Of a stretch of DNA of 64,000 nt, positions 22,429-63,694 are shown piece after piece. The position numbers were made by a program, and so were the translations under genes. Position 1 is the first letter of the stretch; each line of letters begins with the position of its first letter. Under the pieces are notes generated by a model, which saw only the letters and a list, made by a program, of their open reading frames with translations, did no database searches and was not told where the DNA came from. This DNA comes from an uncultured Pseudohongiella sp. (GTDB lineage Bacteria; Pseudomonadota; Gammaproteobacteria; Pseudomonadales; Pseudohongiellaceae): assembly GCA_965230125.1 (NCBI GenBank), contig OZ245938.1, positions 1,613,535 to 1,677,534 of the forward strand, given 5' to 3'.

Positions 22429-22896
22429 CTAGTCTCCGGGCTCGTCATCCTCGCGGTCGTCATTATCTTCCTGCAGGAATGCGAGAGTTTGGAAGCTGTC
22501 CGGGAGCTTCAGTTCCTGGCATATCTGATCAGCAACAACCTGCGCCTTTGATACGGCCTCATAGGCGCTGATAGAGCCTTCCTGGAAGTCTTGCCCCAGC
22601 TCATAAATTCTCTCGGCATGTTCCTCGCGGATGTAGGTATAAATGTAACCGTCTCCAGATTTGATGAGTTGATAAGGGCTTGCTTTCATTTCTTTAACGG
22701 AATCTTCTGCATCCGCTGATTCCGTTGCTTTGGCGCTATTGATGAATGCACGGTCGATATTTGCCCGGCAGCGTAATGCGATTTTTACCCGAAAGGAACG
22801 ACTCGCCCGGTTGTCATCGGCGGCCAACTCATAATCAGCTCTTGCCTGATCTTTGAGTTTTTCGGAGTTGTTCTTGCGTGGTAGAGACCAGATCAT
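22429..22896 (-). CDS. hypothetical protein (155 aa) translationally coupled to fliA
   Basis: Its ATG overlaps the fliA stop (ATGA at 22893-22896). Basic N-terminus and strongly acidic tail (QEDNDDREDDEPGD). No family recognised. Confidence 0.55.
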   Translation of the reverse strand: MIWSLPRKNNSEKLKDQARADYELAADDNRASRSFRVKIALRCRANIDRAFINSAKATESADAEDSVKEMKASPYQLIKSGDGYIYTYIREEHAERIYELGQDFQEGSISAYEAVSKAQVVADQICQELKLPDSFQTLAFLQEDNDDREDDEPGD

Positions 22897-23624
22897 GGCT
22901 CAAGAATATCTTCCTCGTTTTCCTTCAGGATGCTACGTAGTTTTTCAACGCATCCACTCAGTAACTGGCTAACGCGCGATTCGTTGACACCTATGGTTGC
23001 CCCTATCTCTTTGAGGTTCATTTCTTCGACATAGTAAAGTGCAAGTATGAGCTGACGGCGCTCATCGAGTTGCGTGATAGCCCTTGCTAATAGTGCTTTT
23101 ACTTCAGTATCGTTTATGTTGTCGATGATACTTTGTCCGGAATCAGGGAGATCGAATGGTTGTTCTTCGCTAAGACTTTCGATCGCCAGTATGTCAAAGT
23201 TGTTTGCGTGAGTGCGCTGGCGTTCGAGCTCCTCAAGACTTATCTCCAAATGTGCAGCCACTTCGCGGTTGTTTGGAGTCCTGTTCAGTTGCTGAGAAAG
23301 TCCGGCTCTTGCCGCCGCGTGTCGCTGCATATTTTTTACCGCAAGACGTGACTGGTTGCTCAGTCGGCGCACCTCGTCGAGTATTGCGCCCTTGATCCTG
23401 CTTTTTGCGAAATCTTCGAAACCAACTCCCTGGTTGGCGTCAAACTTTTTCTCAGCCTCTATCAGTCCCAGAGTGCCTAGTTGAATCATGTCATCTGTCT
23501 CTACATAGGAAGGAATTCTAGGGCGCAGATAAATTGCGATCTTCCTCACCAATCCCAGATACGCGGAGATGCGGGAGTTGCTTACACCATCTTGCTGGAT
23601 CGTCTCGTAGAGTTCTGTCTTCAT
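22893..23624 (-). CDS. fliA: flagellar sigma factor FliA (sigma28)
   Basis: Region 2 DDMIQLGTLGLIEAEKKFD. Region 4 HTH NLKEIGATIGVNESRVSQLL. Start at ATG 23624 (MKTELYE...) lies just after the fleN stop. The ORF is open to 23681. Confidence 0.9.
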   Translation of the reverse strand: MKTELYETIQQDGVSNSRISAYLGLVRKIAIYLRPRIPSYVETDDMIQLGTLGLIEAEKKFDANQGVGFEDFAKSRIKGAILDEVRRLSNQSRLAVKNMQRHAAARAGLSQQLNRTPNNREVAAHLEISLEELERQRTHANNFDILAIESLSEEQPFDLPDSGQSIIDNINDTEVKALLARAITQLDERRQLILALYYVEEMNLKEIGATIGVNESRVSQLLSGCVEKLRSILKENEEDILEP

Positions 23625-23634
23625 TCTAGGCTGC

Positions 23635-24435
23635 TCAATTCCAGCGTGTGAAAAACTGAGCTGCAGAACCGTCGAGCTCAAGTTGAGGCTGAGATATCGC
23701 CAGATTGTTGGCGATTTTTCGATAGTTGCCTGAAATCTGTGAATGCGGTGCGAGTGACATAATCGGAATGCCGCGCTGCCATGACTGGTTCACCGCCTGG
23801 TCAATAAATACTGATCCCAGGTATCCGAGTCTGGTAAAGAGAAACTTGTTAACGATCAGGTTCAGGCTATCAAACAGTGCCACACCAGCTTTCTCGTTGC
23901 GGACGCTATTCGGTACAAAATATATATTGTCGAGTTGTTTTTCCTTGACCATAACTTTTATTGTTGCGTAAGCATCGGCTACAGAAGTCATGTCGGGAGT
24001 ACCGACGATAATGCGCTGTTGGCAGCCCTTCAAAAATGCCATAACGGTGGCAGAAATCCCGGCTGCGCAGTCAACAATCATATAATCGAATCTATCCTCC
24101 AGCTTGCTAAATGCCTGTACAACCACTGATGACCGAAAACTGTCTAGAGAAGCCAGTTCGCCCTCTCCGCTCGCTCCTGGTACCAGCGTTATTCCAAAAC
24201 CGGTATCCACCAGTATCTCCTCGATTTCCATCTCTCCAGACAAAACATGGCCGAAATTACTTTCGGCGCTGCAATTGAAGCCTATCTGTGCATTGGCCAA
24301 ACCAAGGTCCCCATCAAAATAGAGTACTCGGTGGCCGAGTTCCGCCAGGGCCATGGCAAGGTTGATGGAAAAAGTGGTTTTACCGACACCTCCTTTACCG
24401 CTGGCGATAGCGATTGACCGTTTCATATTTGTCAT
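23635..24435 (-). CDS. fleN: MinD/ParA-type ATPase FleN (FlhG), flagellar number regulator
   Basis: Deviant Walker A IASGKGGVGKTT. Sits between flhF and fliA. Start ATG 24435 (MTNMKRSIAIA...). Confidence 0.9.
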   Translation of the reverse strand: MTNMKRSIAIASGKGGVGKTTFSINLAMALAELGHRVLYFDGDLGLANAQIGFNCSAESNFGHVLSGEMEIEEILVDTGFGITLVPGASGEGELASLDSFRSSVVVQAFSKLEDRFDYMIVDCAAGISATVMAFLKGCQQRIIVGTPDMTSVADAYATIKVMVKEKQLDNIYFVPNSVRNEKAGVALFDSLNLIVNKFLFTRLGYLGSVFIDQAVNQSWQRGIPIMSLAPHSQISGNYRKIANNLAISQPQLELDGSAAQFFTRWN

Positions 24436-24462
24436 GATACTAGCTGAGCTGCTCCATAAACG

Positions 24463-24480
24463 TTGTTGATACCAATTGAT
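24463..24480. repeat. 18-bp motif TTGTTGATACCAATTGAT, copy 1
   Basis: Exact 18-mer also present at 49069-49086. It contains the direct repeat TTGATAC-CAA-TTGATAC. Lies in the flhF-fleN spacer, 28-45 bp upstream of the fleN ATG. Confidence 0.5.
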
Positions 24481-24502
24481 ACAGGGGCGAAGTTGTTCTG
24501 CT

Positions 24503-25765
24503 CTAAAATAAATGAAAAGCAAATTCCGCATCGTCATTGATACCGGAGGGAGGTGTTTCCGCCCACTCGCCAGATTCCTGTATCAATTTTCTCGATAGCG
24601 TTTCCGCAGTTACTTCAATCAGTTTGTCCAGAACACTTGCATGACCACAGCCCATAGAAGCGGGTAGGCCATTGGCGGAGAGAATCTTCAGCAGCGGCCA
24701 GGGCTGTACTACCTGATCCAGTCGCGATACCAGTGCGGATTCAAAGCGATGCAGGTGCTGTTTAACCAGCGGGGGTAGCGACGTCAGGTAGGTGTCTGCC
24801 GGGAGAACCAGATGGCAACGCGCCTCGGGCGCTGCTTTGCTGATGTCTTGCAGACAGTCGCCGACAGTATTCGATGATGTATCGATTATAATGCTGCGAC
24901 TGTTCGAAAACTCTTTGATCAGTGCCCTGAGATTTTCTTCGCCGCACGCCTGGAATGTGGCGATCCCCGCTTTCGCGCCCAGAACCTGCAGGACACTCCA
25001 GGCACCATCTTTGTCGTCCCTGTAGGAGACTACGATAGCTGGCTTATCCGTGCTGCTCAGAAATGAGGCGAGTTTTATCGCCAGGGTTGTTTTGCCGCAG
25101 CCATGATTGCCGAAAAGCGCGTGTATCCCAGGCTTAATGGGCTGGCCAACCAGCTTGCTGTGGCGCAAGTGATCTGCCACCAGATGTGTCAGTGGGTTGG
25201 GGTCACTTCCCCGCGACAATAATTCACGGCATTCATCGAGATAGGAATCAGTCGCTCCGGTCTCGCGAAGATACTCCAGTAGTGGATGCGCTGGCCCGGA
25301 AATGTTTGCAAACTGCTTCGCGCTGCGAAGACTGGCAATCTCCGATTTCAATGAGGTGAGTTCCTGGCGTATCTGAAGCGCGAGAGAACGCATGGCCTGC
25401 GCTTCTACTCCGTTGTGATGATCGCTGGGTCCTGAATCGCCGGCTTTGGAGGTGATGGTCACTGTCGGTCTTTCATTGTCTTGCGCTATAACAGGTTTTT
25501 TGGTTGCTTTTGCCCTGGTGTCGGGCGCTACTGAATCTGACTCCAATTGCTGCTTTAAAGACTCTTCCCGGTTTGCCAGAATCTGTTCAAACCGCATAGA
25601 TTCCACCGTAGCGGGAGGACTTGCGTCATTGTCGACAGCAACAAGAATGACATTTTGATCGTCTTGCCTTCTGTTGGACAGGATCATGACGTTGTCCCCG
25701 CATTGTCGGGTAATCCGTTCGATGCCGGTTTTTGTGTCAGGAGCGTAGACGCGCTTAAGTTTCAT
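24503..25765 (-). CDS. flhF: flagellar biosynthesis GTPase FlhF (SRP-type)
   Basis: N-terminal B-domain MKLKRVYAPDTKTGIERI..VMILSNR. G1 motif LFGNHGCGKTT. Sits between flhA and fleN. Confidence 0.9.
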   Translation of the reverse strand: MKLKRVYAPDTKTGIERITRQCGDNVMILSNRRQDDQNVILVAVDNDASPPATVESMRFEQILANREESLKQQLESDSVAPDTRAKATKKPVIAQDNERPTVTITSKAGDSGPSDHHNGVEAQAMRSLALQIRQELTSLKSEIASLRSAKQFANISGPAHPLLEYLRETGATDSYLDECRELLSRGSDPNPLTHLVADHLRHSKLVGQPIKPGIHALFGNHGCGKTTLAIKLASFLSSTDKPAIVVSYRDDKDGAWSVLQVLGAKAGIATFQACGEENLRALIKEFSNSRSIIIDTSSNTVGDCLQDISKAAPEARCHLVLPADTYLTSLPPLVKQHLHRFESALVSRLDQVVQPWPLLKILSANGLPASMGCGHASVLDKLIEVTAETLSRKLIQESGEWAETPPSGINDDAEFAFHLF

Positions 25766-27966: not shown

Positions 27967-27982
27967 GGCAATTATCATGCCA
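27967..27982 (-). promoter_or_regulatory. candidate sigma54 (-24/-12) promoter for flhA
   Basis: The minus strand reads TGGCAT-GATAA-TTGCC, with GG and GC 12 nt apart, about 80 bp upstream of the flhA ATG. The element is near-palindromic, so the plus strand reads TGGCAA-TTATC-ATGCC. Confidence 0.5.
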
Positions 27983-34059: not shown

Positions 34060-34075
34060 TGGCATTAAACCTGCA
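34060..34075 (+). promoter_or_regulatory. candidate sigma54 (-24/-12) promoter for flgBCDEFGHIJKL
   Basis: TGGCAT-TAAAC-CTGCA with correct GG/GC spacing, 108 bp upstream of the flgB ATG, in an AT-rich divergent intergenic region. Confidence 0.55.
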
Positions 34076-40982: not shown

Positions 40983-40993
40983 GGATGCGATTG

Positions 40994-45451: not shown

Positions 45452-45461
45452 GAGTACAGCG

Positions 45462-49998: not shown

Positions 49999-51270
49999 AT
50001 GGCCGAGAGTGACGCACAGGATCAGTCCGAAGCACCCCCGCCCGCCGATAAGGACACGGTGGCGGTCGCCCCTGAGGGTACAGGCCCCGGGGAAATCGAC
50101 GCTCAGGACGCTGCTATCGACAATCCGGAAGCGGCCGATGGCGGTGGCGCGCCGCTGGATGATTCTGGCGACGAGGAGTGTCCTCCCTGCAAAGGCGGGG
50201 CCCCAGGCTGGATGGCCACCTTTGCCGATATGGCCACACTGCTGATGGCCTTCTTCGTGCTGATTCTGTCCTTCTCCGATACCGAATTACCCAAGTTCGA
50301 GCAGATCAATGGCTCAATACAGGCCGCCTTTGGCATCAAAAAAATTATTCCCACCATTACTATCCCCATGGCGCGCAGCATCATTGTGGAGGACTTCACG
50401 CCAGCACTGGCCGAGCCCACGGTGGTTGACCGGCGGGAGCAACAGGCGGAAAACCCCAATGACCCCTTTGTGCAGAAAAAAACCGAGGAGTTCTCGGAGG
50501 ATTTTCCGATCGAGGAACAGTACCGCGTGGTCGAGGCAGAACTTGCAGAAGCGATCGAACAAGGGCAGGTCAGCGTGCGCATTGTCGATGAGCGTCTGGT
50601 AGTGGAGGTGACGTCTCCAGCCAGTGGCGGTGGCGACGGCCAGGCTGGAATGCAAAGCCGTGACGCCGGTAGCGTTGATCAGCCGCTACTGGACATTGCC
50701 GCGCAAGTGGTAGCGGTGCAGTCTCAGGTGACCGCTGAAGTACAGGTTTACGTCAATGCGCCGGGTGCCACCGACTCAGAGGTGAACGATAGCAGCAGTG
50801 CGCAGTCCGGGGCCGGAGAACCCAGTGCTCAGGAGCGTTTCGAGCGCATCTCTGTCGCGCTGAATACTGATATCGAACAGGGGCGGGTGGAAGTTGAACG
50901 CCAGGGAGATGCAGTGGTGGTCAGGCTGGCCTCTCAGGGGAGCTTTGTCTCCGGTAGCGCGGATTTGCAGAACCAGTTTCTGCCGCTGCTGACCCGGGTC
51001 GGTCAGAGTGTTGCTGAGGGTGGTGGTCGTATTAACGTGGAAGGACATACGGATAACATTCCTATCGCGTTCAGTGAGCAGTTCAATTCCAATTGGGATT
51101 TGTCGGCCGCGCGCGCCGCGTCTGTGGCGGACTTCTTTAACAATCAGCTGGTGATCGACGAATCGCGACTTGAGGTGCTCGGTTATGCCGATACCCGACC
51201 ATTGGCCTCCAACGCCAGTGCCGATGGCCGTTCGCAAAACCGTCGTATTGAAATCGTCGTGGATAACTAG
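49999..51270 (+). CDS. pomB: PomB/MotB-type stator protein, paralog 1 (423 aa)
   Basis: CPPCKGGAPGWMATFADMATLLMAFFVLILSFS is a Vibrio PomB-like Cys motif plus a TM segment with the conserved Asp. OmpA-like C-terminus EGHTDNIPI...SNWDLSAARAASV...NRRIEIVV. Long acidic N-terminus and linker. Confidence 0.85.
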   Translation: MAESDAQDQSEAPPPADKDTVAVAPEGTGPGEIDAQDAAIDNPEAADGGGAPLDDSGDEECPPCKGGAPGWMATFADMATLLMAFFVLILSFSDTELPKFEQINGSIQAAFGIKKIIPTITIPMARSIIVEDFTPALAEPTVVDRREQQAENPNDPFVQKKTEEFSEDFPIEEQYRVVEAELAEAIEQGQVSVRIVDERLVVEVTSPASGGGDGQAGMQSRDAGSVDQPLLDIAAQVVAVQSQVTAEVQVYVNAPGATDSEVNDSSSAQSGAGEPSAQERFERISVALNTDIEQGRVEVERQGDAVVVRLASQGSFVSGSADLQNQFLPLLTRVGQSVAEGGGRINVEGHTDNIPIAFSEQFNSNWDLSAARAASVADFFNNQLVIDESRLEVLGYADTRPLASNASADGRSQNRRIEIVVDN

Positions 51271-51290: not shown

Positions 51291-52472
51291 ATGGCTGAGG
51301 AAGACGAACAGGAACTGGAGCTAGAGGAAGCGGAGCCGCCCGAGGAGTCGCCCCCGGAGGATTGCCCGCCGTGTAAGGCGGGGGCGCCTGCCTGGATGGC
51401 AACATTCGCCGACATGGCGACGCTGCTGATGGCGTTTTTCGTGCTCATCCTGTCTTTCGCCCACGTCAATGTGCCCAAGTACAAACAGGTCAGCGGATCC
51501 ATGCGCATGGCGTTTGGGGTGCAGACGCAGATACCGGTGATCGAGCCACCCAGCGCGGATAACATTATTGCCACCCAGTACCGCACTGCCAGGGTCGATC
51601 CCACACCGGTCCAGACAGTTGAAGAACAGAAAACCGAGCAGCCGCAACCGGAGGATGTCGAGCTGAGAAATGACACCGGGCCCGGTGAATCGGAGACCAA
51701 TGCTGCCGAACAGGCGTTGGAGCAGGCGCTGGCTGAGCAACTGGCGCAGGGCAGGGTGCGGATCAGCACAGCAGACAACAAGGTGCAGGTGGAAATTGTG
51801 GATCGCGGTCAGGAAGGACTGCGCGATTCTCCCGATGCAGGTGGTCCAAGGGGTCAGGTAGACCAGGATACGCTAGAGATCTATGCCCGGGTTGCTGCGG
51901 CGCAGACCGAAACCGATAGCCTGATCGAGGTAATCGATCCGCGTTTTGCCGAAACCACAGTTCAGCAGCAGAATGCGAGCGCCAGCGGTGCCGGTGCGGC
52001 GGTTGGCAGTTCACCGCTTGATGATCAGTACCAGCAGATCCGCGCCAATCTTTCGGAACAAATCCGTGACGGTCTCGCCGAGGTGGAGCGCGATGGCGAT
52101 CAGATCATTATCCGGCTCGCTGAGCAGGGCACCTTTGACAGCGGACAGGCAGAATTGAAACCGGAGTTTTTCACGCTGATCAATACGGTGGGTGCGTCAA
52201 TTTCCGGCACCCAGGGGCGGATCAGCGTCGAGGGGCACACCGATAATGTGCCCATCGGCTTTGGCAGTCGCTATCGATCGAACTGGGATTTGTCAGCAGC
52301 CCGCTCCGCCGCAGTAGCAGACTATCTGGTCAATAATGATTTTGTGCAGGCTGGTCGGGTCAGCATCAAGGGTTTTGCTGACTCACGACCGCTGGCAGAT
52401 AATGACAGTGCGATCGGCCGCGCCAGCAATCGCCGGATTGAAATCATTATCAATGGCTCTGGCAGCAGTTAA
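51291..52472 (+). CDS. pomB: PomB/MotB-type stator protein, paralog 2 (393 aa)
   Basis: CPPCKAGAPAWMATFADMATLLMAFFVLILSFAHVNVPKYKQVSGSMRMAFGVQTQ includes a plug region close to my recollection of Vibrio PomB. OmpA-like C-terminus EGHTDNVPI...SNWDLSAARSAAV...NRRIEIII. Confidence 0.85.
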   Translation: MAEEDEQELELEEAEPPEESPPEDCPPCKAGAPAWMATFADMATLLMAFFVLILSFAHVNVPKYKQVSGSMRMAFGVQTQIPVIEPPSADNIIATQYRTARVDPTPVQTVEEQKTEQPQPEDVELRNDTGPGESETNAAEQALEQALAEQLAQGRVRISTADNKVQVEIVDRGQEGLRDSPDAGGPRGQVDQDTLEIYARVAAAQTETDSLIEVIDPRFAETTVQQQNASASGAGAAVGSSPLDDQYQQIRANLSEQIRDGLAEVERDGDQIIIRLAEQGTFDSGQAELKPEFFTLINTVGASISGTQGRISVEGHTDNVPIGFGSRYRSNWDLSAARSAAVADYLVNNDFVQAGRVSIKGFADSRPLADNDSAIGRASNRRIEIIINGSGSS

Positions 52473-52502: not shown

Positions 52503-53273
52503 TCAGGCGGGGCAATCGCTCAGCCCGTCACCGAGACAGTTGTTGATAACAGCGTCCGCCTCGGCAACCTCATCATCTTCCAGCAAAATCACTGCCACCG
52601 CAGACACGTCGCCGGCATCAGTGAAACCGCTACGTTCGGCAATCGTGGCCCACACGTAGGCGCCAAACGGGTTCGATTCGTCCGCGCCTTCGCCCGCCTG
52701 CAGCATGTAGGCGTACATGAACTGGGCGTTCACCGAGCCTTGCCGAGCCGCCTTGAGAAACCAGCGCCGTGCTTCACGGTAGTCCAGGTCAACACCCTTG
52801 CCTTGCTGATAGGCCAGGCCCAGCATGTACTGCGCTGGCACGATGTCCTGTTCAGCAGCCTGGCGGAACCAGCGCACCGCCTCGCGCGGATTTTCCGCCA
52901 CCCCGTAACCGTTGTAGTACAGCAGGCCGATATTGTGCATGGCCTCCGGTAGGTCATTGTCGGCGGCCTGGCGATACCACCGCATGGCCGTGGTGTAGTT
53001 CTGTGCGACTCCCAGGCCTTCTTCATACATATGGCCAATATTGTTTTGCGCTTCGGGCACGCCGGACTCTGCCAGTGGCTGCCAGGCGCGAATGGCGGTG
53101 GCAAAATGGCCACGATCTTTGGCGGCCACACCGGCTTCCAGACTGGTTTGTTGAGCCTGGGCCGGCGCAGATAGTGTGCAGGCGACTGCCAACGCCAGTA
53201 GCAGTATGCGCGGCAGCGACCCGGGTTTGGCGCTGTTATCGGCAGGACCGAGAGCGACAATTATGTCAGGCAT
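52503..53273 (-). CDS. secreted Sel1-repeat (SLR) protein, MotX candidate
   Basis: At least four Sel1 repeats (AQNNIGHMYEEGLGVAQNYTTAMRWYRQAA, AMHNIGLLYYNGYGVAENPREAVRWFRQAA and others). Signal peptide present. Lies next to pomAB. ATG 53273 is preferred; GTG 53285 is the alternative. Confidence 0.75.
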   Translation of the reverse strand: MPDIIVALGPADNSAKPGSLPRILLLALAVACTLSAPAQAQQTSLEAGVAAKDRGHFATAIRAWQPLAESGVPEAQNNIGHMYEEGLGVAQNYTTAMRWYRQAADNDLPEAMHNIGLLYYNGYGVAENPREAVRWFRQAAEQDIVPAQYMLGLAYQQGKGVDLDYREARRWFLKAARQGSVNAQFMYAYMLQAGEGADESNPFGAYVWATIAERSGFTDAGDVSAVAVILLEDDEVAEADAVINNCLGDGLSDCPA

Positions 53274-53288
53274 AGAGTGGTTCACTTA

Positions 53289-54983
53289 TTAACTCCTTTC
53301 CAGTTGGCGCACGCTATTCTGAACTTGCAACACCGCCTGGAACAGATCACCTTCGGTAACTACCCCAAGCACGCGACGAGAATCGGCAGCCAGCACCGGG
53401 ATGCTCTCGCCGACAAAGCGGCTTACCTTGTGCATAACTTCCGCGAGGCTTTCCGACTCGTTAAAACACAGCGGGTTTCGGTCCAGGCAGCTGGCAATGG
53501 GTTCGCTGCCGGCATTGGCGCTGTCGAACACTGTGACTTTGCCCAGCAACTGTTGTTCGGAGTCGACGATATAGGCTTCAGTAAACGGTCCTTCAGCCAT
53601 GCGCCCCATCAATTCATGGCCGGTGAGACTGTCGGGTACACTCAGGTATCGCGCTCCCACGTAGTCGCCAACCCGACTTTTGTCCAGGGCCAGGGATTCG
53701 CGACCCATGCGCAGGTCGATGCCCCGGTCCAGCAGCTGTCGATCAAAATAGGATTGGCCGAACAGGCGGTGGGTGAGCAAGTTGCTGATAATGACCGCAA
53801 TCATTGCCGCCACGGCAAAGCCATAGGAGCCGGTCAACTCCAGCACAATTAGTACTGCTGAAATGGGCGCGCCGATCACGGCGGCGCTCACCGCGGCCAT
53901 GGCGGCCACGCTGATCACCTCATCCAGGCCGGTTATGCCGAAGCCAGCCAGTAGCTGCGCAACAATGGCGCCGGTGGCCACGCCCACAAACAGGGCCGGA
54001 GAAAACACGCCGCCGAATAAGCCAAAGCCGATACACAGGGCGGTCATCACCAGCTTGCCAACCAGCAGCGCCAGCAGCAGATTCAGGCTGGCATCACCAG
54101 CGATCATGCCGTTAATGCCGTCGATACCGATACCCAGGATCTGCGGCAGAAAAACACCGGTAGAACCACAGATCAACGCGGCCAGAACCGGCAGGGTATT
54201 GGCTGACAGTGGCAGGTGTTTGCCGAGCGCGGTGGCGCCGCGCAACGCCGTCATAAAACTGATGGCCACCAGTGCGGCCAGTGGGCCCAACAGCAGCAGA
54301 ATCGGTGCGAGCTGTACCAGCGGCGGCACGGACTGATGGATCTGGAAGGTGGTGCCGCTGCTGCTGAAAAACAGGCTGTCAAACGTACTGGCGCTGATGG
54401 CGGCTATAAAGATCGGAGCAATGGCCCGCGGGGAAAAATGGCGCAGGACTGCCTCATGAGCAAACACCACGCCAGCCAGTGGCGCGTTAAAGCCGGCAGA
54501 AATTGCTGCCGCCACGCCGCAACCCAGAAAAATATCCTGAGAGAGCAAGTTGCCAAACACCCGCCGCAAGGCGCAACCCACTGTGGCGCCAAAGTGGACC
54601 ACCGGTCCGTACTGGCCCACCGAAGCGCCGCCGGCAGCGGAGATGAATGCCGCCAGAGTGGAGCCCGCGCCCTGTTTGATATCCAGACGGTGCTGAACAT
54701 TGTGTGCGGCGTAGATGCTGTCTGCAGGACCAGCCCAGGCGCCAAGGCGCAGCAGCCTGCGCAACCCGATGACGGCCAGGGCAGCCAGCAGCAGAAAAAT
54801 GATCGGTGCCAGGGAATAACGGCCCCAGGGCAGGCCTACGCTCAACAATTGGCTGGACTCGCGCAACACCTTGGCGGATTGCACACCGAGTACGAACAGA
54901 TTGGCTACCACCGCCATCAGCAGACCGATAAAGCAGCCCACCAGCAGGATGATTAACAGTTCTTTGAATATCCGATATGACAT
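53289..54983 (-). CDS. ClC-family chloride channel/antiporter with C-terminal CBS pair
   Basis: Polytopic protein with selectivity-type segments GGASVGQYGPVVHFG and GVFSPALFVG, plus two CBS-like modules at the C-terminus. Start ATG 54983 (MSYRIFKELL...). Confidence 0.85.
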   Translation of the reverse strand: MSYRIFKELLIILLVGCFIGLLMAVVANLFVLGVQSAKVLRESSQLLSVGLPWGRYSLAPIIFLLLAALAVIGLRRLLRLGAWAGPADSIYAAHNVQHRLDIKQGAGSTLAAFISAAGGASVGQYGPVVHFGATVGCALRRVFGNLLSQDIFLGCGVAAAISAGFNAPLAGVVFAHEAVLRHFSPRAIAPIFIAAISASTFDSLFFSSSGTTFQIHQSVPPLVQLAPILLLLGPLAALVAISFMTALRGATALGKHLPLSANTLPVLAALICGSTGVFLPQILGIGIDGINGMIAGDASLNLLLALLVGKLVMTALCIGFGLFGGVFSPALFVGVATGAIVAQLLAGFGITGLDEVISVAAMAAVSAAVIGAPISAVLIVLELTGSYGFAVAAMIAVIISNLLTHRLFGQSYFDRQLLDRGIDLRMGRESLALDKSRVGDYVGARYLSVPDSLTGHELMGRMAEGPFTEAYIVDSEQQLLGKVTVFDSANAGSEPIASCLDRNPLCFNESESLAEVMHKVSRFVGESIPVLAADSRRVLGVVTEGDLFQAVLQVQNSVRQLERS

Positions 54984-55132
54984 CTTTGTTGCTTTGCAGC
55001 GCAGTCTGACCAGCACCCGATCGGTGGCATCTTTCCGCCGCCAGGGCGCGACTGCCGCGACGCTGGAGGTGCTGCAAGAAATCGATAAGAAGGCGCTCTA
55101 GACCGGCTCTGGCAAGGGGCAACAATAACCGA

Positions 55133-55647: not shown

Positions 55648-56841
55648 TTACTGGAGCAGGGCCAGGACCGACTGCTTCACCTGATTGGCCTGGGCCAGCA
55701 TCGCGGTGCCAGCCTGGGCGATAATCTGGGTGCGCGCCAGTTCAGTGGTTTCCGCGGCGTAGTCCGCGTCTGTAATCTGACCTCTGGCCGACTCGGTATT
55801 CATTGATATATTGCTAAGATTATCAACGGTGTGCGTGAGGCGGTTTTGAAAAGCACCCAGGCTGGCTCGTTGTGATGAAATATTGGCTATCGCCGTATCG
55901 AGTGTCGTGATAGCTGTACTGGCGTTGGACTGGGTGGTGATGTCGCCAGAGACAGATGTTGCGTCAGTAGCGCCAGCCATCACCTCGACTGAATAGGGAT
56001 TGTCGACATCTACACCAGTCAATGTCAGTGTATTTGTACCATCTACGCTCGCTGCAGCATGTATTGTTCCTTGCATGCTGGTGTTGGAATTGATCATGGC
56101 TGCCAGATTTGTAGCAAGCAGATCGCCAACTCCGTCATCATTATTATCGCCGCTGTTCGCTAAGTCGGCTACGTCGGCTGCCGTGACTGTGTAGTTAAAG
56201 GATTGGTCACCTATAGTAAGGGAAACGGTTTCATCGGCGGCCATGCCGCTGTAATCAGTGGCAAAGTCAAGAACAGAAACCTGTCCGTTAGTTCCGTCCG
56301 GTGCGGTAATGGTAGCCGCAATAGCTGTTCCGTTAGTTCCAGCTGATCCGGCGATATCCGAAATGGCAACTGCCATGGTTTGTGTTGCTTCGGAACCTAT
56401 CTGAAAGGTAAAACTCGCAGTGCTGCCATCCAGCAAGAGCATGTCATTGAACTCAGTCGTATCCCTGACCCTGGTTATTTCAGTAGCCAGAGCCTGAAAT
56501 TCATCATCCAGATAACCACGATCATCTGCGCTGTAAGTGTCGCTTGATGCTTGAACAGCGAGCTCTCGCATCCGCTGCATCATATTTGTTACTTCATCCA
56601 GCGCACCCTCAGCAGTCTGAAGTAAGGATGTTGCATCGTTCGCATTTCGAACCGCCTGGTCCAGCCCCCGGATCTGAGAAGTCATCCGCGAAGAAATCGC
56701 GAGGCCAGCGGCGTCATCTTTGGCGGAGTTGATGCGCTGGCCGGTGGATAGCCGTTCCATCGCGGTGCTCATCGTGCGTTCGTTCCGGGTCAGCGCATTG
56801 GCCGCCAGGGTAGCTGAGACATTGGTATTGATTGCAGTCAT
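55648..56841 (-). CDS. fliC: flagellin
   Basis: N-terminus MTAINTNVSATLAANALTRNERTMSTAMERLSTGQRINSAKDDAAGLAISSRMTSQIRGL. C-terminus DADYAAETTELARTQIIAQAGTAMLAQANQVKQSVLALLQ. Confidence 0.95.
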   Translation of the reverse strand: MTAINTNVSATLAANALTRNERTMSTAMERLSTGQRINSAKDDAAGLAISSRMTSQIRGLDQAVRNANDATSLLQTAEGALDEVTNMMQRMRELAVQASSDTYSADDRGYLDDEFQALATEITRVRDTTEFNDMLLLDGSTASFTFQIGSEATQTMAVAISDIAGSAGTNGTAIAATITAPDGTNGQVSVLDFATDYSGMAADETVSLTIGDQSFNYTVTAADVADLANSGDNNDDGVGDLLATNLAAMINSNTSMQGTIHAAASVDGTNTLTLTGVDVDNPYSVEVMAGATDATSVSGDITTQSNASTAITTLDTAIANISSQRASLGAFQNRLTHTVDNLSNISMNTESARGQITDADYAAETTELARTQIIAQAGTAMLAQANQVKQSVLALLQ

Positions 56842-56960
56842 TCTGGTTACTCCGTTACGTTGTCATAAAAGTACTGATAACGACCACTCACCTTCGCATT
56901 AGTCCTGTCCGGTCGCGATCATGAGACCGGTTCGTCACCGGGAATATGCCGTTAACAAGA

Positions 56961-56988
56961 CGTTCGACACTTGGCTGAACGATCTTTA
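56961..56988 (-). promoter_or_regulatory. candidate sigma28 promoter for fliC
   Basis: The minus strand reads TAAAG-ATCGTTCAGCCAAGT-GTCGAACG, about 120 bp upstream of the fliC ATG. It shares AAGTGTCGAA with the flgM site. Confidence 0.6.
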
Positions 56989-57107
56989 TAGGCTGAGCCT
57001 GGAGAACTACTGGAGAATTACAGGTGGCGCCTTATGCATATAAGCAATGCCGCAACCGCGTTATCGGCGGAATAGAAGCCCCGGCGGTGTCAGCTTGCTG
57101 CCCGCTC

Positions 57108-57135
57108 TAAAGTTATGCCTGGCAAAGTCCGAATG
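57108..57135 (+). promoter_or_regulatory. weaker sigma28-type promoter candidate for fliS
   Basis: TAAAG-TTATGCCTGGCAAAG-TCCGAATG, 45 bp upstream of the fliS ATG 57180. Confidence 0.4.
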
Positions 57136-57179
57136 GCGAAGAAATGGTAAATGTGCAGGGAGTTGTACTTGTGAATATA

Positions 57180-57578
57180 ATGGTAAAAAACGCACTATCG
57201 TCCTATCAGGACGTTGGCTACACGGCCAGTGTGGACTATTCCGATCCTCATCAGCTGGTGGGCATGCTGTTTAATGCGCTGTTGGAGTCGCTGGCTGATG
57301 CCAGACGACATCTCTCTGCTGCAGATCTGGTCAGCAAAGGTCGCAGTATCGCCCGCGCCCAGAAAATTATTTATGGTTTACGCAGCACGCTGGATTTCAA
57401 GCGCGGCGGTGAGCTGGCGCGGAATCTGGATGCCTTGTATGACTACTGTTTGCGGCGCCTGTCGCTCGCCAATGCGGAAAACGATCCGGCGGTGCTTGCG
57501 GAAGTCGCCAGTCTGCTCGGTGAGATCAGTGAAGCCTGGCATTTAATGCCTAACCGGGTGTTTCCTGAGCAGCAGTGA
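57180..57578 (+). CDS. fliS: flagellin-specific chaperone FliS
   Basis: MVKNALSSYQDVGYTASVDYSDPHQLVGMLFNALLESL...AQKIIYGLRSTLDFKRGGELARNLDALYDYCLRRL is the FliS four-helix pattern. Confidence 0.85.
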   Translation: MVKNALSSYQDVGYTASVDYSDPHQLVGMLFNALLESLADARRHLSAADLVSKGRSIARAQKIIYGLRSTLDFKRGGELARNLDALYDYCLRRLSLANAENDPAVLAEVASLLGEISEAWHLMPNRVFPEQQ

Positions 57579-57750
57579 CGGGTAGTCAGTGGTCTGCGGG
57601 TCGTGCCTGGCCGATACAGTCTGATACCAATTTTTCGGCAATTGGGGCTCTTTGCAGATTGTCATCCACCGGTTAGTCAGTAGAATTGGATGCCCCTGTA
57701 CGTCATAACAAGAGTCGTCTGGCTCCAGCTGACCATGCCCTGGAATCGCA

Positions 57751-58864
57751 ATGCGCAACAATCATAGCTTGCTGCTCGGTGACTGTCCCGCAATGCTGGA
57801 GCTGAAGGCGATGGTTGCTGCCTGCGCGCCCAGCAATGCGTCAGTACTTATCCGAGGCGAGACTGGTGTCGGCAAGGAAGTGGTCTGCAGGCAATTACAT
57901 GCCATGTCAGGTCGCGCCCAGCAAGCTTTGGTAGCAATTAACTGTGGTGCGATTCCCGGCACGTTGCTGGAAAGCGAGCTGTTTGGTCACCGCAAAGGAG
58001 CCTTTACCGGCGCCCTGTCGGATCGCATTGGCCGTATCGAGATGGCCGAGGGCGGCACCCTGTTTCTGGATGAGATCGGCGATATGCCGATGGATCTTCA
58101 GGTCAAGCTGCTCCGGGTGCTCGAAGATCGCTGCGTTGAGCCGCTTGGCGGAGGTGAATCCCGTCCGGTTGATATCCGGGTCGTCTACCCACCAGAATCT
58201 GGCTGCCATGGTGGAGCGTGGTGAGTTTCGCGAAGATCTCTACTATCGACTGAATGTCATTCCGCTGACCATTCCGCCGTTACGGGATCGCGGGGTGGAC
58301 ATCGCGACCCTGTGCCGCCATTTTACGGAACTGCACGCCAGTAACGGCAACGCCATCAGCTTTACTGCGCGATCCCAGCACGTGCTGGAACAGTATGGCT
58401 GGCCCGGCAATGTTCGGGAAATGTCGAACCTCATCATGCGTTTCAGTGTGCTGTTCGCCGGTAATCGCATTGATCTTGCCCAGGTTCCCCAGTCAGCCAT
58501 GCCCGAAGCGCTGGTGCGCCTTACCACAGATATGCTTACCCCACTGGATCCCGGCCCCGATGTAGACGAGCTGGACCTGCTGAAACGGCTGCCGACTGAA
58601 ACGACGCCGGCGGCCGTTGAATCAGCACCAGACTCGGACGACTGGACACCGCAGCAGGCCGAAGAACTGGTGGCTCTTGCTCAGGGCCGGCGCGATCTGC
58701 CCAGCCAGGGCATTGCCACCAAGCAGATTCTTCAGGATCTGGAGAGTAACTTCATCAAAGTGGCGCTGAACCAGGCCAATGGTAATGTGTCCAAGGCGGC
58801 CATGTTGCTTAAGTTGCAGCGCACCACACTTATTCAGAAAATTGAAAAGTACAATCTGAGTTGA
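57751..58864 (+). pseudogene. sigma54-dependent enhancer-binding protein (FleQ/FlrA position) lacking an N-terminal regulatory domain, interrupted by a frameshift
   Basis: Frame 1 (57751-58224) encodes Walker A GETGVGKE, GAFTGA and Walker B TLFLDEIG, ending ...VDIRVV. The sequence [22 protein letters not shown]...GWPGNVREM and the HTH GNVSKAAMLLKLQRTTL continue in another frame to 58864. The shift lies near 58183-58190. Confidence 0.8.
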
Positions 58865-59323
58865 TGCGAGATCGAATCTATAGATAACCGCGACTCGGCT
58901 CACGCCTCGATTTCTTCTGTCTGTCCGCTCATTTGTTTTACCTCCTCATTATTTTAACTCCGCGCGTAACTTGAGCTAACAAGCCGCGACTTCAATTATT
59001 GTCGTCGAGCCATCACGGTTTCTCGTTTCTTGCGCCACTGGTCATATTAAGGTACGACCGGTTAGAAACATTCGAAACAATGAAGACAATTGATCACAAA
59101 ACTCTTTTTAACATTGCTTACTAAAACATCAATATACCGAACGCACGGCGAAAAAAGCTTTTATTGGATGCTTAAAAGTAACAGGGCCATGTAACCCACA
59201 AATAGGTAACCAACAAAATGGTGTTTATAAAAAGTGGCAACCAGTTGCGCGTTAAAGATTAATAGCTGTCATAAAAATGGCAGCCGTTTTTTTAGCTATT
59301 GAAAAACAAGGAGAAATATTCAC

Positions 59324-59339
59324 TGGCACGGTGATTGCA
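59324..59339 (+). promoter_or_regulatory. sigma54 (-24/-12) promoter upstream of the second activator gene
   Basis: TGGCAC-GGTGA-TTGCA is a full match to the TGGCAC-N5-TTGCW consensus, 34 bp upstream of ATG 59373. Confidence 0.7.
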
Positions 59340-59372
59340 GGTACAGATTAGAACGTCAGTTATTTAACGGCC

Positions 59373-60419
59373 ATGGTCATGTATCAGATGCAACAGCAGA
59401 AGAACGATAAAGTCGATTCGCAACCCGGTATGGGTAACGCCGAACAACCATTTGTGTTTGTTGATCCGGAAAGTGCGCGACTATTTTCGCTGGCCACTCG
59501 TGTCGCGGCTACCAATGTGCCGGTGTTGGTGGCCGGACCTACCGGCGCTGGCAAAGAAATAGTTGCCAAGGTTGTCCACGAGGCTTCGCCACGGGCCAGC
59601 GGCCCCTTCGTTGCGGTTAATGCCGCTGCTGTGCCAGGGAGTCTTGCCGAGGCACTGTTCTTCGGTCATGAGAAAGGTGCGTTTACCGGCGCCCAGGCGG
59701 CCAGCCCCGGATATTTTGAGCAGGCTCATGGTGGCACCTTGTTTCTGGACGAGATTGGCGAGATGCCGCTGGATTTGCAGCCGAAAATTTTGCGCGTGCT
59801 GCAAGACAAGAAGGTCACTCGCATCGGCAGCACGCGTTCAATTGATGTGGACGTGCGGATTGTGGCCGCGACCAATGTTGATCTGCGCAAAGAACTGGCG
59901 GACGGGCGGTTTCGGGAAGATCTGTATTACCGACTAAGCGCATTCCGACTCTCTGTGTCACCACTGGCTGCCCGACCTCTTGATATCAAGCCCCTGAGTC
60001 TGTTGATGCTACAAAAATACGGTTCTGGGGGGCGACACTCAGGGTTTACCGCCACGGCTATGAACAAACTGCTTGGCCACAGTTGGCCTGGCAATGTTCG
60101 GGAACTGGAGAATGTGATTGCCCGGGCGATTGTGCTCGCTGAGGACCACCAAATCGGCGTCGACGCCATTGTGTTCGACGACGAGGAGTTAGGCGCGGCA
60201 TCGGTGGTCGCCGTTAAGGAGGCGCGACCCGAACGCCAGCAGATTGCGCTGGACCCTTGTGCCAGTGCCGAGGCCAATAGCATCGTGACCGCAATGCAGC
60301 AGGCCCGTAATCGGAAAGAAGCCGCGAGCCGGCTGGGCATTAGCACCCGGACTCTGCGCCACAAGCTGCAGCAGTTGCGCAGCAGTGGATTTGATGTGCC
60401 CAAGGCCTATTCACGCTAA
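59373..60419 (+). CDS. sigma54-dependent enhancer-binding protein without receiver domain (AAA+ plus HTH only)
   Basis: Walker [15 protein letters not shown], Walker [29 protein letters not shown], and a C-terminal Fis-type [23 protein letters not shown]. Only about 35 aa precede the AAA+ core. The stop is 14 bp before fliE. Confidence 0.85.
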
Positions 60420-60433
60420 GCGGAGGACTGACC

Positions 60434-60784
60434 ATGAACAGCAGTGCTATTCAGCAAAGCAACGAGCTCCTGTCACAGATCCGCGCCTATCAGGACCGTA
60501 TAGGGGAGCAGCGGCCAGCGGAACTGGACCAGGCCGGTGGTATCGCCACCGACAAAGCATTCAATACCCGTATGATTGAGGCGATGAAAACCTCTATCAA
60601 CGAGGTCAACAGCCTGCAGGCGAATTCGGCCGACATGATCGCCCGCTACGAGTCTGGCGAGGACGTGCCGCTTACCGAAGTCGTGCTGGCTATGCAGAAG
60701 TCTTCTCTGGCCTTTGAAGCCACTGTGCAGGTCCGCAACAAGGTCATCAAAGCCTACGAAGACATCATGAATATGCCGGTGTAA
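60434..60784 (+). CDS. fliE: flagellar hook-basal body protein FliE
   Basis: C-terminus LTEVVLAMQKSSLAFEATVQVRNKVIKAYEDIMNMPV is the FliE signature. Confidence 0.9.
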   Translation: MNSSAIQQSNELLSQIRAYQDRIGEQRPAELDQAGGIATDKAFNTRMIEAMKTSINEVNSLQANSADMIARYESGEDVPLTEVVLAMQKSSLAFEATVQVRNKVIKAYEDIMNMPV

Positions 60785-60805: not shown

Positions 60806-62605
60806 ATGGAAGCAATACAGGACAACAGCATGGCTTTTCAGCCGGCCCCGCTGGAAAAGCCAGCCTCGACGCCGGCGCCGGCCAGCGACGGCAATACTGG
60901 TGAGGCTAATTTGCCGGCCAAAGCGCCTTCGGAAGGGGCGTTTCCGAGCGTCACTGAAATAGTCTCCCAACCACTGGTCAGGAAATCATTGCCAGCCATT
61001 CTGGCTGTGCTGGTACTGGCTGGGTTCGCGCTGGTGTTTCTCTGGATAGATGACGGTGAGTTCCGCGCGCTGTATCCGGGGATGTCCGACCTTGATCGGG
61101 GCGAGGCTTATGAGGCTCTGATTGCAGCAGGTATCAATGCGCGCATTGACAGCGCAAGCGGATCTATTACCGTCCCGCTGGACCGCTACTACGAGGCACG
61201 GATGGCGCTTGCATCCGCTGGCTTGCCTCGTGAGGCTTCCAGCAGCGCCATGGATTATTTCAATAATCAAAGTTCCATGACTACCAGTCAGTTTATGGAG
61301 CAGGCAAGGTATGGGGCGGTCATCGAAAATGAGCTGGTCAAGAGTATTGCCCAGATTTCTTCGATTCAATCGGCGCGGGTGCATCTTGCTACCCCCCGGC
61401 AAAGCGCATTCATTCGCAACCGAACGCCGACCAAGGCATCAGTGGTGGTAGTGCCATATGCAGGTCGCAGCATAAGTCCCGGCCAGGTCCAGGCCATCAC
61501 GCACCTGGTTGCCTCCAGCGTGCCGTATTTGTCCGCCAGTGATGTGTCAGTGGTAAACCAGCAGGGAGATCTACTCACCAATACCATGTCACCTTTGCTG
61601 AACGAAGCCTCCATGCAGACCAATTTCGAGCGAACCGTGGAGGAAAACTACCGCGAGCGCGTGGAAAGCCTGCTGGCGCCGATGGTCGGAATGGACAATG
61701 TACGTGCCGACGTCGACGTGATTCTTGATTTCACGGAGCTTGAAACCACCGTTGAGGAATATGACCAGAACGATCAGGGACCACAGACCCGGTCCGAGGT
61801 GCTGATAGAAGACCGCACTGAAACCCTGACCGCTGCCGGTGTGCCGGGCGCGCCCACGAATGTGGCACCGGAGAACACTGACCTGGCGGAAGCCAATACT
61901 GCCGACCTGGGCGTCGAGGGTGGCACCGATAGCGGCGTGCGCAGTTCGCGGACAACCCGCAATTACGAGTTGGACCGCTCGATTCGGTATGTGCGTAACC
62001 AGCCCGGCAGTTTGACCCGATTGTCCATTGCCGTGGTAATCAACGAACAGGCCTTTGCTGATTCTGAAGGCGAGGGCGGTGAGCCAGCCGCGGATATTGA
62101 TCAGCGTCGCACCGAGATGACCGAACTGGTGCGTGCCGCGGTGGGCTTTGATGCTAATCGCGGTGACTCGGTCACGGTGATCAGCGCGCCGTTCCGTCCT
62201 GAACAGGAAATTCGCACTGTTACTCCCTGGTATGAAGACCCGGCCATTTTGTCTTTGATCAAGTATGGATCCGGGCTTTCCGCATTCCTGATTCTTGCGC
62301 TTTTTGTACTTCGACCCGTGATCAAGCTGTATCTGCCGGAGAAAGAGAATGAGGCTGAAGAAAGAGCCAAAGCACTGGCTGACGGGGAACTGTCAGAAGA
62401 GGAACTGCAGATGATTAGCCTGGGTGAGGGTGAGTCTCTGGAAGAAATCAAGTCCAAGCTCAAACCGAAGAAATCCACTATCTCTGCTGACATGCTCGAT
62501 ACTGCCAATACCTATGACGACAAGGTAGCCCTGATCAGGCTGCTGGTGGCAGAGGACTCCGGTCGCGTGGCGAATGTGCTGAAGAAGATGATTAAACCAG
62601 TTTAG
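60806..62605 (+). CDS. fliF: flagellar MS-ring protein FliF
   Basis: A 599-aa protein with an N-terminal TM, YARMALASAGLP, ELVKSIAQISSIQSARVHLATPRQSAFIR and a second TM near the C-terminus. Confidence 0.95.
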   Translation: MEAIQDNSMAFQPAPLEKPASTPAPASDGNTGEANLPAKAPSEGAFPSVTEIVSQPLVRKSLPAILAVLVLAGFALVFLWIDDGEFRALYPGMSDLDRGEAYEALIAAGINARIDSASGSITVPLDRYYEARMALASAGLPREASSSAMDYFNNQSSMTTSQFMEQARYGAVIENELVKSIAQISSIQSARVHLATPRQSAFIRNRTPTKASVVVVPYAGRSISPGQVQAITHLVASSVPYLSASDVSVVNQQGDLLTNTMSPLLNEASMQTNFERTVEENYRERVESLLAPMVGMDNVRADVDVILDFTELETTVEEYDQNDQGPQTRSEVLIEDRTETLTAAGVPGAPTNVAPENTDLAEANTADLGVEGGTDSGVRSSRTTRNYELDRSIRYVRNQPGSLTRLSIAVVINEQAFADSEGEGGEPAADIDQRRTEMTELVRAAVGFDANRGDSVTVISAPFRPEQEIRTVTPWYEDPAILSLIKYGSGLSAFLILALFVLRPVIKLYLPEKENEAEERAKALADGELSEEELQMISLGEGESLEEIKSKLKPKKSTISADMLDTANTYDDKVALIRLLVAEDSGRVANVLKKMIKPV

Positions 62606-62623: not shown

Positions 62624-63694
62624 ATGGCTGAAGAAGCGAATATCGATCTTCCGACGGCACCGGAGGAGAAAGAACTTCCGGAAAATGTAAAGCAGGAACT
62701 GGAAGTGATGACCGACACCGAACGGGCCGCGGTCATAATGTTGTTGCTTGGTGAACAGCAGGCCGCAGACATTATCAAGTTTTTGTCGCCCCGTGAAGTC
62801 CAGGCACTGGGCGCCAGCATGGTCGGGGTTGCCGATTTGTCCCAGGAGACAGTCAATGTGGTACTGGACGATTTTGTTGCGACCATTAAAAAACAGACAA
62901 ATCTTGGCCTTGGTACTGTCGACTACGTGGAGAGCGTGTTCAAACGTGCGCTTGGTGACGAGAAGGCGGCTACTGTTCTTGGTCGGATCATGCCGGGTTC
63001 ATCCAGCAAGGGGCTGGAAATTCTGCGCTGGATGGACGCGCGATCGATTGGCGAGATGATTCAGGACGAACATCCTCAGGTCATCGCCATCATTTTGTCG
63101 GTCCTTGAATACGACGTTGCAGCCGACGTGCTGAATTTTCTTGAACCAGAAATTCGTCCGGGAGTTATCCAGCGCGTCGCCATGCTGGATACAGTGCAGC
63201 CATCCGCCATGGAAGAGCTGGAGTCAATTATGAAACAACAGTTCACTAACAGCTCGTCCGCCAAGTCGTCCAATTTTGGTGGTATCAAGGCGGCGGCAAA
63301 GATCATGAACTTCACCAAGGTTGAGCTGGAAAGCAAGATCATGGAAGGGGTAACTGAAAAAGATGAAGAGCTGGCGCTCAAGATTCAGGACAATATGTTC
63401 ACGTTTGAGAACCTGTCCGCCCTCGATAATCGCAGTATTCAGACGCTGATGCGAAGTATTGAAAACGATATGTTGATGACTGCTCTGAAAGCCGCTGATG
63501 AAACTGTCAAGGACAAGTTCCTGGATAACATGTCGCAACGTGCGAAAGTCATGTTCCTTGACGAGATGGAAGCGAAGGGGCCGATCCGCATTACCGATGT
63601 CGAGGATGCCCAGAAAAACATTATGCGCATAGCGCGTAAGCTTTCTGACAAGGGTGAAATTGTGCTGGCCGGTCGAGGTGATGATTTTGTCTGA
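62624..63694 (+). CDS. fliG: flagellar rotor switch protein FliG
   Basis: ERAAVIMLLLGEQQAADIIKFL, EHPQVIAIILSVLE, and MFTFENLSALDNRSIQTLMRSI...MSQRAKVMFLDEME. Confidence 0.95.
   Translation: MAEEANIDLPTAPEEKELPENVKQELEVMTDTERAAVIMLLLGEQQAADIIKFLSPREVQALGASMVGVADLSQETVNVVLDDFVATIKKQTNLGLGTVDYVESVFKRALGDEKAATVLGRIMPGSSSKGLEILRWMDARSIGEMIQDEHPQVIAIILSVLEYDVAADVLNFLEPEIRPGVIQRVAMLDTVQPSAMEELESIMKQQFTNSSSAKSSNFGGIKAAAKIMNFTKVELESKIMEGVTEKDEELALKIQDNMFTFENLSALDNRSIQTLMRSIENDMLMTALKAADETVKDKFLDNMSQRAKVMFLDEMEAKGPIRITDVEDAQKNIMRIARKLSDKGEIVLAGRGDDFV

Follow-up and report, generated by a model that had tools for sequence, protein, structure and literature searches.

Two flagellar sigma-54 activators without N-terminal regulatory domains at the end of a Pseudohongiella flagellar cluster

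How can flagellar genes be turned on in order when the activators encoded beside them carry no sensory domain? Studies of Vibrio, Pseudomonas, Campylobacter and Helicobacter conclude that in polar flagellates a two-component system ties the expression of rod and hook genes to a finished export gate and MS ring; such a flagellum-associated system was present in 19 of the 21 FlhF/FlhG species surveyed (PMC7064773). The question is raised by a 64-kb stretch of DNA from an uncultured Pseudohongiella sp. (contig OZ245938.1, positions 1,613,535 to 1,677,534), hereafter the window. It contains a 40-kb flagellar cluster, at the end of which, near the window end, lie two activator genes, gene 1 (57751-58864) and gene 2 (59373-60419). 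An earlier sequence-only reading had described both as lacking any N-terminal sensory domain and as arranged like the FleQ and FleT pair of Rhodobacter sphaeroides. Herein, we report that the reduced architecture is real biology, conserved in Pseudohongiellaceae-like contigs, and that the pair probably represents reduced forms of FleQ/FlrA and FleR/FlrC, although gene 1 is frameshifted in the window itself.

Gene 2 is intact. Pfam placed Sigma54_activat from residue 31, followed by the AAA lid and HTH_8 at residues 299-334, and there was no Response_reg or FleQ-domain match at E<=0.01, with ~30 residues ahead of the AAA+ domain. Gene 1 starts with the ATG at 57751 (MRNNHSLLLGDCPAM...), after a 172-bp spacer that follows the fliS end at 57578. 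Its frame-repaired protein had Sigma54_activat from residue 9 (E=2e-67), AAA_lid_14 and HTH_8 at residues 329-369 (E=7.5e-10), and no Pfam FleQ-domain or Response_reg match at E<=0.01, so that the N-terminal domain of FleQ/FlrA is missing. Gene 1 had been said to begin at the AAA+ core, which holds for the domain start; the 5-nt deletion described below went unnoticed. Upstream starts that would give either protein an N-terminal extension were rejected because in-frame stops lie seven codons before the ATG of gene 1 and eight codons before that of gene 2. The domain annotation that the sequence-only reading had proposed thus gave Sigma54_activat and HTH_8 in both proteins, and Response_reg and FleQ in neither.

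The kinase was sought in the same DNA. The 508-bp spacer between genes 1 and 2 contained no open reading frame (ORF) of at least 60 aa on the + strand, and none of the scanned window ORFs had a histidine kinase or receiver domain. When the 64 kb were searched by tblastn with five FleS/FlrB kinases, three receivers and four FleQ N-domains, no relic was found, and the best hit (E=0.012) was far from genes 1 and 2. By comparison, five classic loci (L007-L010 and L012) had 1.7-2.0 kb with kinase and receiver between the two AAA+ cores, and both of their activators carried N-terminal domains of ~130 aa. The window synteny, fliC-flaG...fliS-gene 1-gene 2-fliEFG, was the order of the classic loci. 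Going by the locus sequence, the FleS/FlrB kinase gene that normally stands between the two activators is gone. Pfam, in-frame stops and tblastn agree with the earlier claim that both activators lack a sensory domain, the claim of an absent kinase gene stood as well, and the distances given for fliS to gene 1 (172 bp) and gene 2 to fliE (14 bp) were exact.

To which activators the two proteins belong was assessed from best matches, a tree and synteny. Among solved structures, the repaired gene 1 protein matched Pseudomonas aeruginosa FleQ best (282 bits, from FleQ residue 147), compared with 201 bits for FlrC; FlrA was the other top match, and the gene 1 helix-turn-helix (HTH) aligned to the FleQ C-terminus. 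Gene 2 matched Vibrio cholerae FlrC best, at 250.6 bits, compared with 215.8 for FleQ. A neighbour-joining tree of AAA+ cores was built with FleQ/FlrA and FleR/FlrC proteins from Pseudomonas, Photobacterium, Rheinheimera and others, and with NtrC-type outgroups. Gene 2 and its relatives were sister to FlrC/FleR with a support of 74, and gene 1 and its relatives adjoined the FleQ/FlrA clade with weak support.

Gene 1 shows the marks of a FleQ/FlrA protein in its AAA+ domain with GAFTGA and its C-terminal Fis-type HTH (in the frame-repaired protein, the window copy being frameshifted), in its closest similarity, and in its location, with fliS next to it and the second activator and fliE downstream. 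In gene 2, the AAA+ and HTH domains are closest to FlrC/FleR and the gene is sited before fliE; a receiver domain with a phospho-accepting Asp and an adjacent cognate kinase gene (fleS/flrB) are both absent. Public annotation nevertheless labels these receiver-less proteins "two-component system response regulator FlrC". Judged from these data, the pair would be reduced orthologues of the Pseudomonas/Vibrio FleQ/FlrA and FleR/FlrC, a view that we hold, jointly with the rest of the explanation developed below, with moderate confidence. The sequence-only reading had set the locus apart from the FleQ/FleSR and FlrA/FlrBC schemes; the orthology points the other way, and Rhodobacter descent found no support.

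The domain-less pair recurred directly before fliEFGHIJ in related contigs (L002, L086, L084/L085 and L088), with gene 2 72-99% identical, and both genes were intact in all five (L002, L084, L085, L086 and L088). Metagenomes contained hundreds of gene 1-like proteins of 337-387 aa without an N-domain, and many receiver-less gene 2-like (FlrC-like) proteins of 330-365 aa. Walker A and B, GAFTGA, the arginine finger, sensor II and the HTH were invariant in gene 2 relatives of 46-76% identity and in gene 1 relatives, indicating purifying selection. The C-terminal HTH and tail were strongly conserved in gene 2 and 12 aligned relatives. Four AAA+-only matches of 281-312 aa (P0383, P0297, P0386 and P0363), considered as FleT-like forms, were rejected as fragments on ~1-kb contigs.

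These results bear on the idea that both short activators are decaying FleQ/FleSR remnants and that something else drives the flagellar regulon. Gene 1 is indeed broken in the window and in one related contig (L083), and FleR has little role in Pseudomonas putida. However, in both architectures the motifs for catalysis and sigma-54 contact stay invariant even where identity falls to 46-50%, and over many metagenomic clusters, the promoters of genes 1 and 2 are conserved, and the five contigs mentioned above have both genes intact. We regard such decay as very improbable.

Among the matches listed from a genome scan with generic AAA+ motifs, most were unrelated NtrC-family loci and none came from a Pseudohongiella or Cereibacter genome; L003-L013 were used. 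Two of these loci, from marine gammaproteobacteria (L003 and L006, the latter of the OM182 clade), branched in the tree as sisters to both window proteins. Like the window, they lacked a kinase and had a short FleQ, here 337-364 aa long; their second activator was preceded by a sigma-54 promoter and followed by fliE. Unlike the window, their second activator kept an N-terminal extension of ~130 aa without a Pfam match. This partial form suggests a stepwise reduction, in which the order of events is read from present-day sequences. The extension is conserved (L003:9318-10802 and L006:3436-4869) and could represent a regulatory domain that is either novel or strongly degenerate. Its identity as a degenerate receiver was unsupported, as there was no Response_reg match.

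Gene 1 is not one open frame in the window: frame 1 opens at 57751 and ends after 157 aa with a stop at 58222-58224. Compared with near-identical genomes, the window has a 5-nt deletion and one substitution, GTCGT-----CTACC (GTCGTCTACC) standing for GTCATCGCGGCTACC of L002. The deletion falls between Walker B and sensor I and removes the two Ala of the conserved VIAATH strand. L002, a contig of a Pseudohongiellaceae metagenome-assembled genome, was 99.6% identical to the window over 16,255 bases, with this deletion as the single indel. As written in the window, gene 1 therefore makes no full activator, and the completeness of the other flagellar genes is no ground for calling the organism motile. 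A programmed +1 frameshift at 58184-58186 was rejected: there was no slippery or stop-codon context, and the shifted product would still be short of two residues of the strand before sensor I.

The deletion reflects either an inactive master regulator, with a strain predicted to be non-flagellated, or a local assembly error. The latter, in which the frameshift is an assembly or consensus artefact and activator 1 is in reality an intact protein of 372 aa in a normally motile organism, is a serious possibility that we rate somewhat below an even chance. The intact 372-aa protein is encoded in two near-identical assemblies (L002 and L086), and the remaining flagellar genes of the window are all full length. 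The five bases are also retained in L001 (GCA_965284165.1), an error-rich assembly with 53 gap openings in 14.6 kb relative to the window and most flagellar genes fragmented, which makes it unfit for pseudogene calls. Furthermore, nine window-specific substitutions (six synonymous), located at 57783-58183, were found in the 435 nt before the deletion, compared with seven in the other ~5.9 kb. Such a cluster suggests a recombination tract or a consensus of mixed strains, either of which would leave this pattern, more than gradual decay.

Three observations speak against an artefact. The deletion is the only indel in 16.25 kb relative to L002; it lies outside any homopolymer, and a 5-nt loss is atypical of read errors; and a second lineage, L083, has an independent frameshift in its gene 1 orthologue (4887-4912), ~25 nt upstream of the window's deletion site. 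There, L083 (of a lineage 75-80% identical) has a run of six G, compared with seven G in L088 (3346) and L089 (1015). The L083 frameshift could be homopolymer slippage, of the on/off switching kind, or a sequencing error. Its independence makes natural knock-outs of gene 1 plausible.

We then turn to the signals that would control the two genes. The perfect TGGCAC-N5-TTGCA element claimed before gene 2 was recovered as TGGCACGGTGATTGCA, the sole exact match in the window compared with 0.09 expected. In L083, L003 and L006 an equivalent site precedes the gene 2 start by 33-41 nt, and in L084 one lies ~39 nt before a revised start, so that the promoter is kept in five lineages. There was no terminator-like site in the gap between gene 2 and fliE, and the two are probably co-transcribed. 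Gene 2 abuts fliE and is thus probably the first gene of the fliE operon, not part of a fleSR operon of its own. The sequence-only reading had listed fliE-fliF-fliG-fliH after gene 2: the first three are in the window, and fliH, which extends beyond the window end, was confirmed in the 99.6%-identical L002 locus.

For gene 1, the absence of a recognisable sigma-54 promoter was borne out, as no sigma-54-like site scoring at least 8/11 was found in the fliS-gene 1 spacer. A sigma-70-type candidate (TTGTCA, 16 nt, TAGAAT) matched the consensus at 10/12 positions; its -10 CAGTAGAAT was invariant and TTGT of its -35 was kept in L083 and L084, which makes three lineages with the window. Upstream of it, the box CGATAC-N4-TGATACCAATT contains a GATAC direct repeat 10 bp apart and was invariant in the same three lineages, in a spacer that is otherwise divergent. 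The box might serve as an operator for control of the master activator.

Two motifs were found near the sigma-54 promoters in post hoc searches. All four window copies of AAGTGGCA are upstream of sigma-54 promoters: one before gene 2, at 59232-59239, and three on the flgB side, at 33887-33948. The latter fall within 62 bp, one of them inverted, 112-173 bp upstream of the TGGCATTAAACCTGCA promoter. The second motif is a palindrome, TG[CT]CA-N6-TG[GA]CA, which occurred three times in the window compared with 0.155 expected. Two copies, TGTCATAAAAATGGCA and TGCCAGGGCGATGGCA (28119-28134), are upstream of the sigma-54 promoters of gene 2 and of flhA (TGGCATGATAATTGCC), respectively; the third (24037-24052) is within flhG, upstream of fliA. 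Boxes resembling TGTCATAAAAATGGCA were present at equal distance in L083 and L084. A broader motif, CTGTCA-N6-TGGCAG with two mismatches allowed, was dropped because it was not enriched (12 compared with 7.3 expected); only the stricter palindrome is. The palindrome and AAGTGGCA are candidate enhancer sites, which either protein might bind.

We propose that the locus encodes a kinase-less, two-tier sigma-54 cascade of reduced FleQ/FlrA and FleR/FlrC orthologues, which on balance is the explanation that we find probable. The conserved sigma-70-type promoter would drive gene 1, whose product would bind upstream of the sigma-54 promoter at 59324-59339 and turn on the gene 2-fliEFGHIJ operon, and probably flhA. 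Gene 2 would be active once made because it has no receiver, and would, alone or with gene 1, turn on rod and hook sigma-54 promoters such as that of flgB; FliA would then drive flagellin expression. The transcriptional order, possibly together with an action of FlhG/FleN on gene 1, would set the timing in place of a phosphorylation checkpoint. FleN/FlhG acts on FleQ/FlaK, and by analogy a trans-acting brake on gene 1 is plausible.

Several points weigh against this proposal. All of its regulatory arrows are drawn from sequence. The join of gene 1 to the FleQ/FlrA clade had a support of <50, and the 5-nt deletion may be either biological or artefactual. The candidate enhancer at 59265-59284 also matches an intrinsic-terminator pattern, in the window only. 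In P. aeruginosa, FleR requires its receiver domain and phosphorylation, and a receiver-deleted FleR with only the AAA+ and DNA-binding domains did not restore flagella or flgB/flgF expression (PMC10696123). A receiver-less FleR is therefore not automatically active, and the form found here must oligomerise differently or need a partner. A partner regulator may be encoded elsewhere in the genome, as rpoN and the remaining genome are outside the 64-kb view. FleR is nearly dispensable in P. putida, so the role of gene 2 may be minor.

The hierarchy described earlier for R. sphaeroides was correct: FleQ activates the fleT-fliEFGHIJ operon (PMC7277832) and then acts with FleT, and both proteins lack N-terminal regulatory domains (PMC9542535). 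The Rhodobacter (Cereibacter) sphaeroides Fla1 system, compared by description, is like the window in having an N-domain-less master activator and an N-domain-less second activator that heads a sigma-54 fliEFGHIJ operon. In the same way, gene 2 appears to be the first gene of a sigma-54-dependent fliEFGHIJ operon, with a 14-bp gap and no terminator. One may thus suppose that gene 1 alone activates the gene 2 operon and that gene 1-gene 2 hetero-oligomers then read the next promoters, with gene 2 acting as FleT. The gene order and promoter types are those of fleQ followed by the sigma-54-dependent fleT-fliEFGHIJ (PMC7277832), and the shared lack of N-terminal regulatory domains (PMC9542535) fits too. 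Genes 1 and 2 encode paralogues with ~46% identity across the AAA+ core, and the motifs found ahead of flgB and ahead of gene 2 have a TGGCA core in common.

However, FleT is by definition devoid of a DNA-binding HTH and inactive by itself. As had been pointed out earlier, gene 2 differs in keeping a C-terminal HTH (HTH_8): the highly conserved HTH and tail of gene 2 and its 12 aligned relatives do not agree with the FleT definition of neither N-domain nor HTH, and gene 2 groups with FlrC/FleR. The comparison with Rhodobacter comes from literature descriptions, and Rhodobacter uses a dedicated RpoN2. A Rhodobacter-type division of labour is therefore rather unlikely in our view, and a cascade of reduced FleQ/FlrA and FleR/FlrC orthologues is preferred.

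The closest known system is FleQ and FleS-FleR of P. aeruginosa, equivalent to FlrA and FlrB-FlrC of V. cholerae; it supplies the nearest sequence relatives of gene 1 (FleQ and FlrA) and of gene 2 (FlrC), in the same position from fliS to fliEFG. The window shares with Pseudomonas and Vibrio FlhF/FlhG, FliA, and sigma-54 promoters before the second activator, flgB and flhA; it differs by lacking the FleQ N-domain, the FleS/FlrB kinase and the receiver of the FleR homologue. N-domain-less flagellar activators as such are already known. LafK, the master activator of the lateral flagella of Vibrio parahaemolyticus and Aeromonas, is among the sigma-54 activators with AAA+ and HTH but no signal-recognition domain (PMC3162934) and by description has the architecture of gene 1, whereas the window context is a polar one with FlhF/FlhG and a second activator. 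Xanthomonas and Stenotrophomonas are polar flagellates with FlhF/FlhG that have no two-component system associated with the flagellum (PMC7064773). In L013, fleQ is directly before fliE, like the pair here; unlike the window, this group has a single full-length FleQ with an N-terminal region (ORF up to 540 aa, L013) and lacks a FleR homologue. Among plasmids, gene 2 was matched best (47% identity) on the Qipengyuania citrea plasmid NZ_CP098495.1 (L087), where a receiver-less 388-aa sigma-54 activator (58676-59842) overlaps the fliE start in an activator-fliEFGHI operon, like the gene 2 layout. Unlike the window, this alphaproteobacterium (Erythrobacteraceae) has a single activator, with ~65 aa before the AAA+ core.

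The features are collected in Table 1. The genes flhF, flhG and fliA are markers of a polar flagellum. Within the cluster, pomA and two motB-like genes precede flaG and fliC, both on the minus strand. The window contains no rpoN, the tRNA scan found no tRNA genes, and an Rfam scan of 56800-60500 at E<=1 returned nothing, with no riboswitch or small RNA family in the spacers. Some neighbouring proteins are unusual. FlgE (972 aa, 35765-38683) and FlgK (974 aa, 42527-45451) exceed twice the usual length; in both, the ends are conserved and large insertions occupy the centre. A single pomA-like gene is followed by tandem MotB-family genes at 49999-51270 (423 aa) and 51291-52472 (393 aa), both encoding long acidic low-complexity linkers. 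Between the stator genes and flaG-fliC, at 52503-55016, lie genes for a Sel1-repeat protein and for a CBS-domain ClC chloride channel; L001, L002 and L083 have this insertion too.

Table 1. Coordinates of activator genes, regulatory signals and flagellar genes in the window
Feature	Coordinates	Strand	Basis or remark
Gene 1, 5' part: frame 1, codons 1-145; AAA+ core with Walker A, GAFTGA, Walker B	57751..58185	+	
Gene 1, frameshift site: 5-nt deletion and one substitution relative to near-identical genomes	58184..58186	+	Alignment with L002
Gene 1, 3' part: +1 frame; sensor I, arginine finger, AAA lid, HTH_8, stop included	58187..58864	+	
Gene 2: AAA+ and HTH_8, 348 aa, intact, receiver-less	59373..60419	+	Pfam
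Candidate operator: box CGATAC-N4-TGATACCAATT, fliS-gene 1 spacer	57612..57632	+	Alignment of window, L083 and L084 spacers
Candidate sigma-70-type promoter of gene 1: TTGTCA, 16 nt, TAGAAT	57659..57686	+	10/12 consensus match
Candidate enhancer element: AAGTGGCA motif	59232..59239	+	Upstream of gene 2 sigma-54 promoter
Candidate activator 1 site: palindrome TGTCATAAAAATGGCA	59267..59282	+	Starts 57 bp upstream of -24 element
Sigma-54 promoter of gene 2 operon: TGGCACGGTGATTGCA (TGGCAC-N5-TTGCA)	59324..59339	+	33 nt before gene 2 ATG
Sigma-54-like promoter TGGCATTAAACCTGCA, candidate cascade target	34060..34075	+	108 nt upstream of flgB
Sigma-54-like promoter TGGCATGATAATTGCC, candidate cascade target	27967..27982	-	81 nt upstream of flhA
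flhA-flhF-flhG-fliA	27886-22893	-	Start of flagellar cluster
flhF, flhG (fleN-type MinD-like ATPase), fliA	22893..25765	-	NCBIfam FlhF, MinD-type and FliA matches
flgA and flgBCDEFGHIJKL	32776-46382		fliD after
fliS, 144 aa, upstream of gene 1	57144..57578	+	Pfam FliS E=2.9e-33
fliE, 14 bp past gene 2	60434..60784	+	Pfam FliE
fliF	60806..62605	+	Pfam YscJ_FliF, YscJ_FliF_C
fliG	62624..63694	+	Pfam FliG_N, FliG_M, FliG_C

In the open-access literature, we found no paper on a gammaproteobacterial FlhF/FlhG lineage with a receiver-less FleR/FlrC orthologue and without FleS/FlrB, and a conserved lineage of this kind appears to be undescribed. It would be an exception to the pattern of 19 in 21 species mentioned above. 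A wider scenario, which we offer tentatively and consider doubtful as a whole, is that an FlhF/FlhG clade in Pseudomonadales (Pseudohongiellaceae, with the OM182-type form as an intermediate) swapped the widely conserved FleSR/FlrBC checkpoint for a purely transcriptional, phosphorylation-free relay of two domain-less activators. Its FleR homologue would oligomerise independently of a receiver, the lineage would represent the gammaproteobacterial state from which Rhodobacter FleQ/FleT arose by HTH loss, and natural populations might turn off motility through frameshifted master activators, of which the window and L083 would be examples. The locus also gives the Rhodobacter FleQ/FleT scheme, which otherwise stands isolated, a set of gammaproteobacterial relatives for comparison. 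A lineage with a receiver-less FleR orthologue and no kinase gene at the locus is also a test case for the checkpoint that couples rod and hook expression to assembly, which may be dispensable here, or replaced by a transcriptional delay or by protein-protein control.

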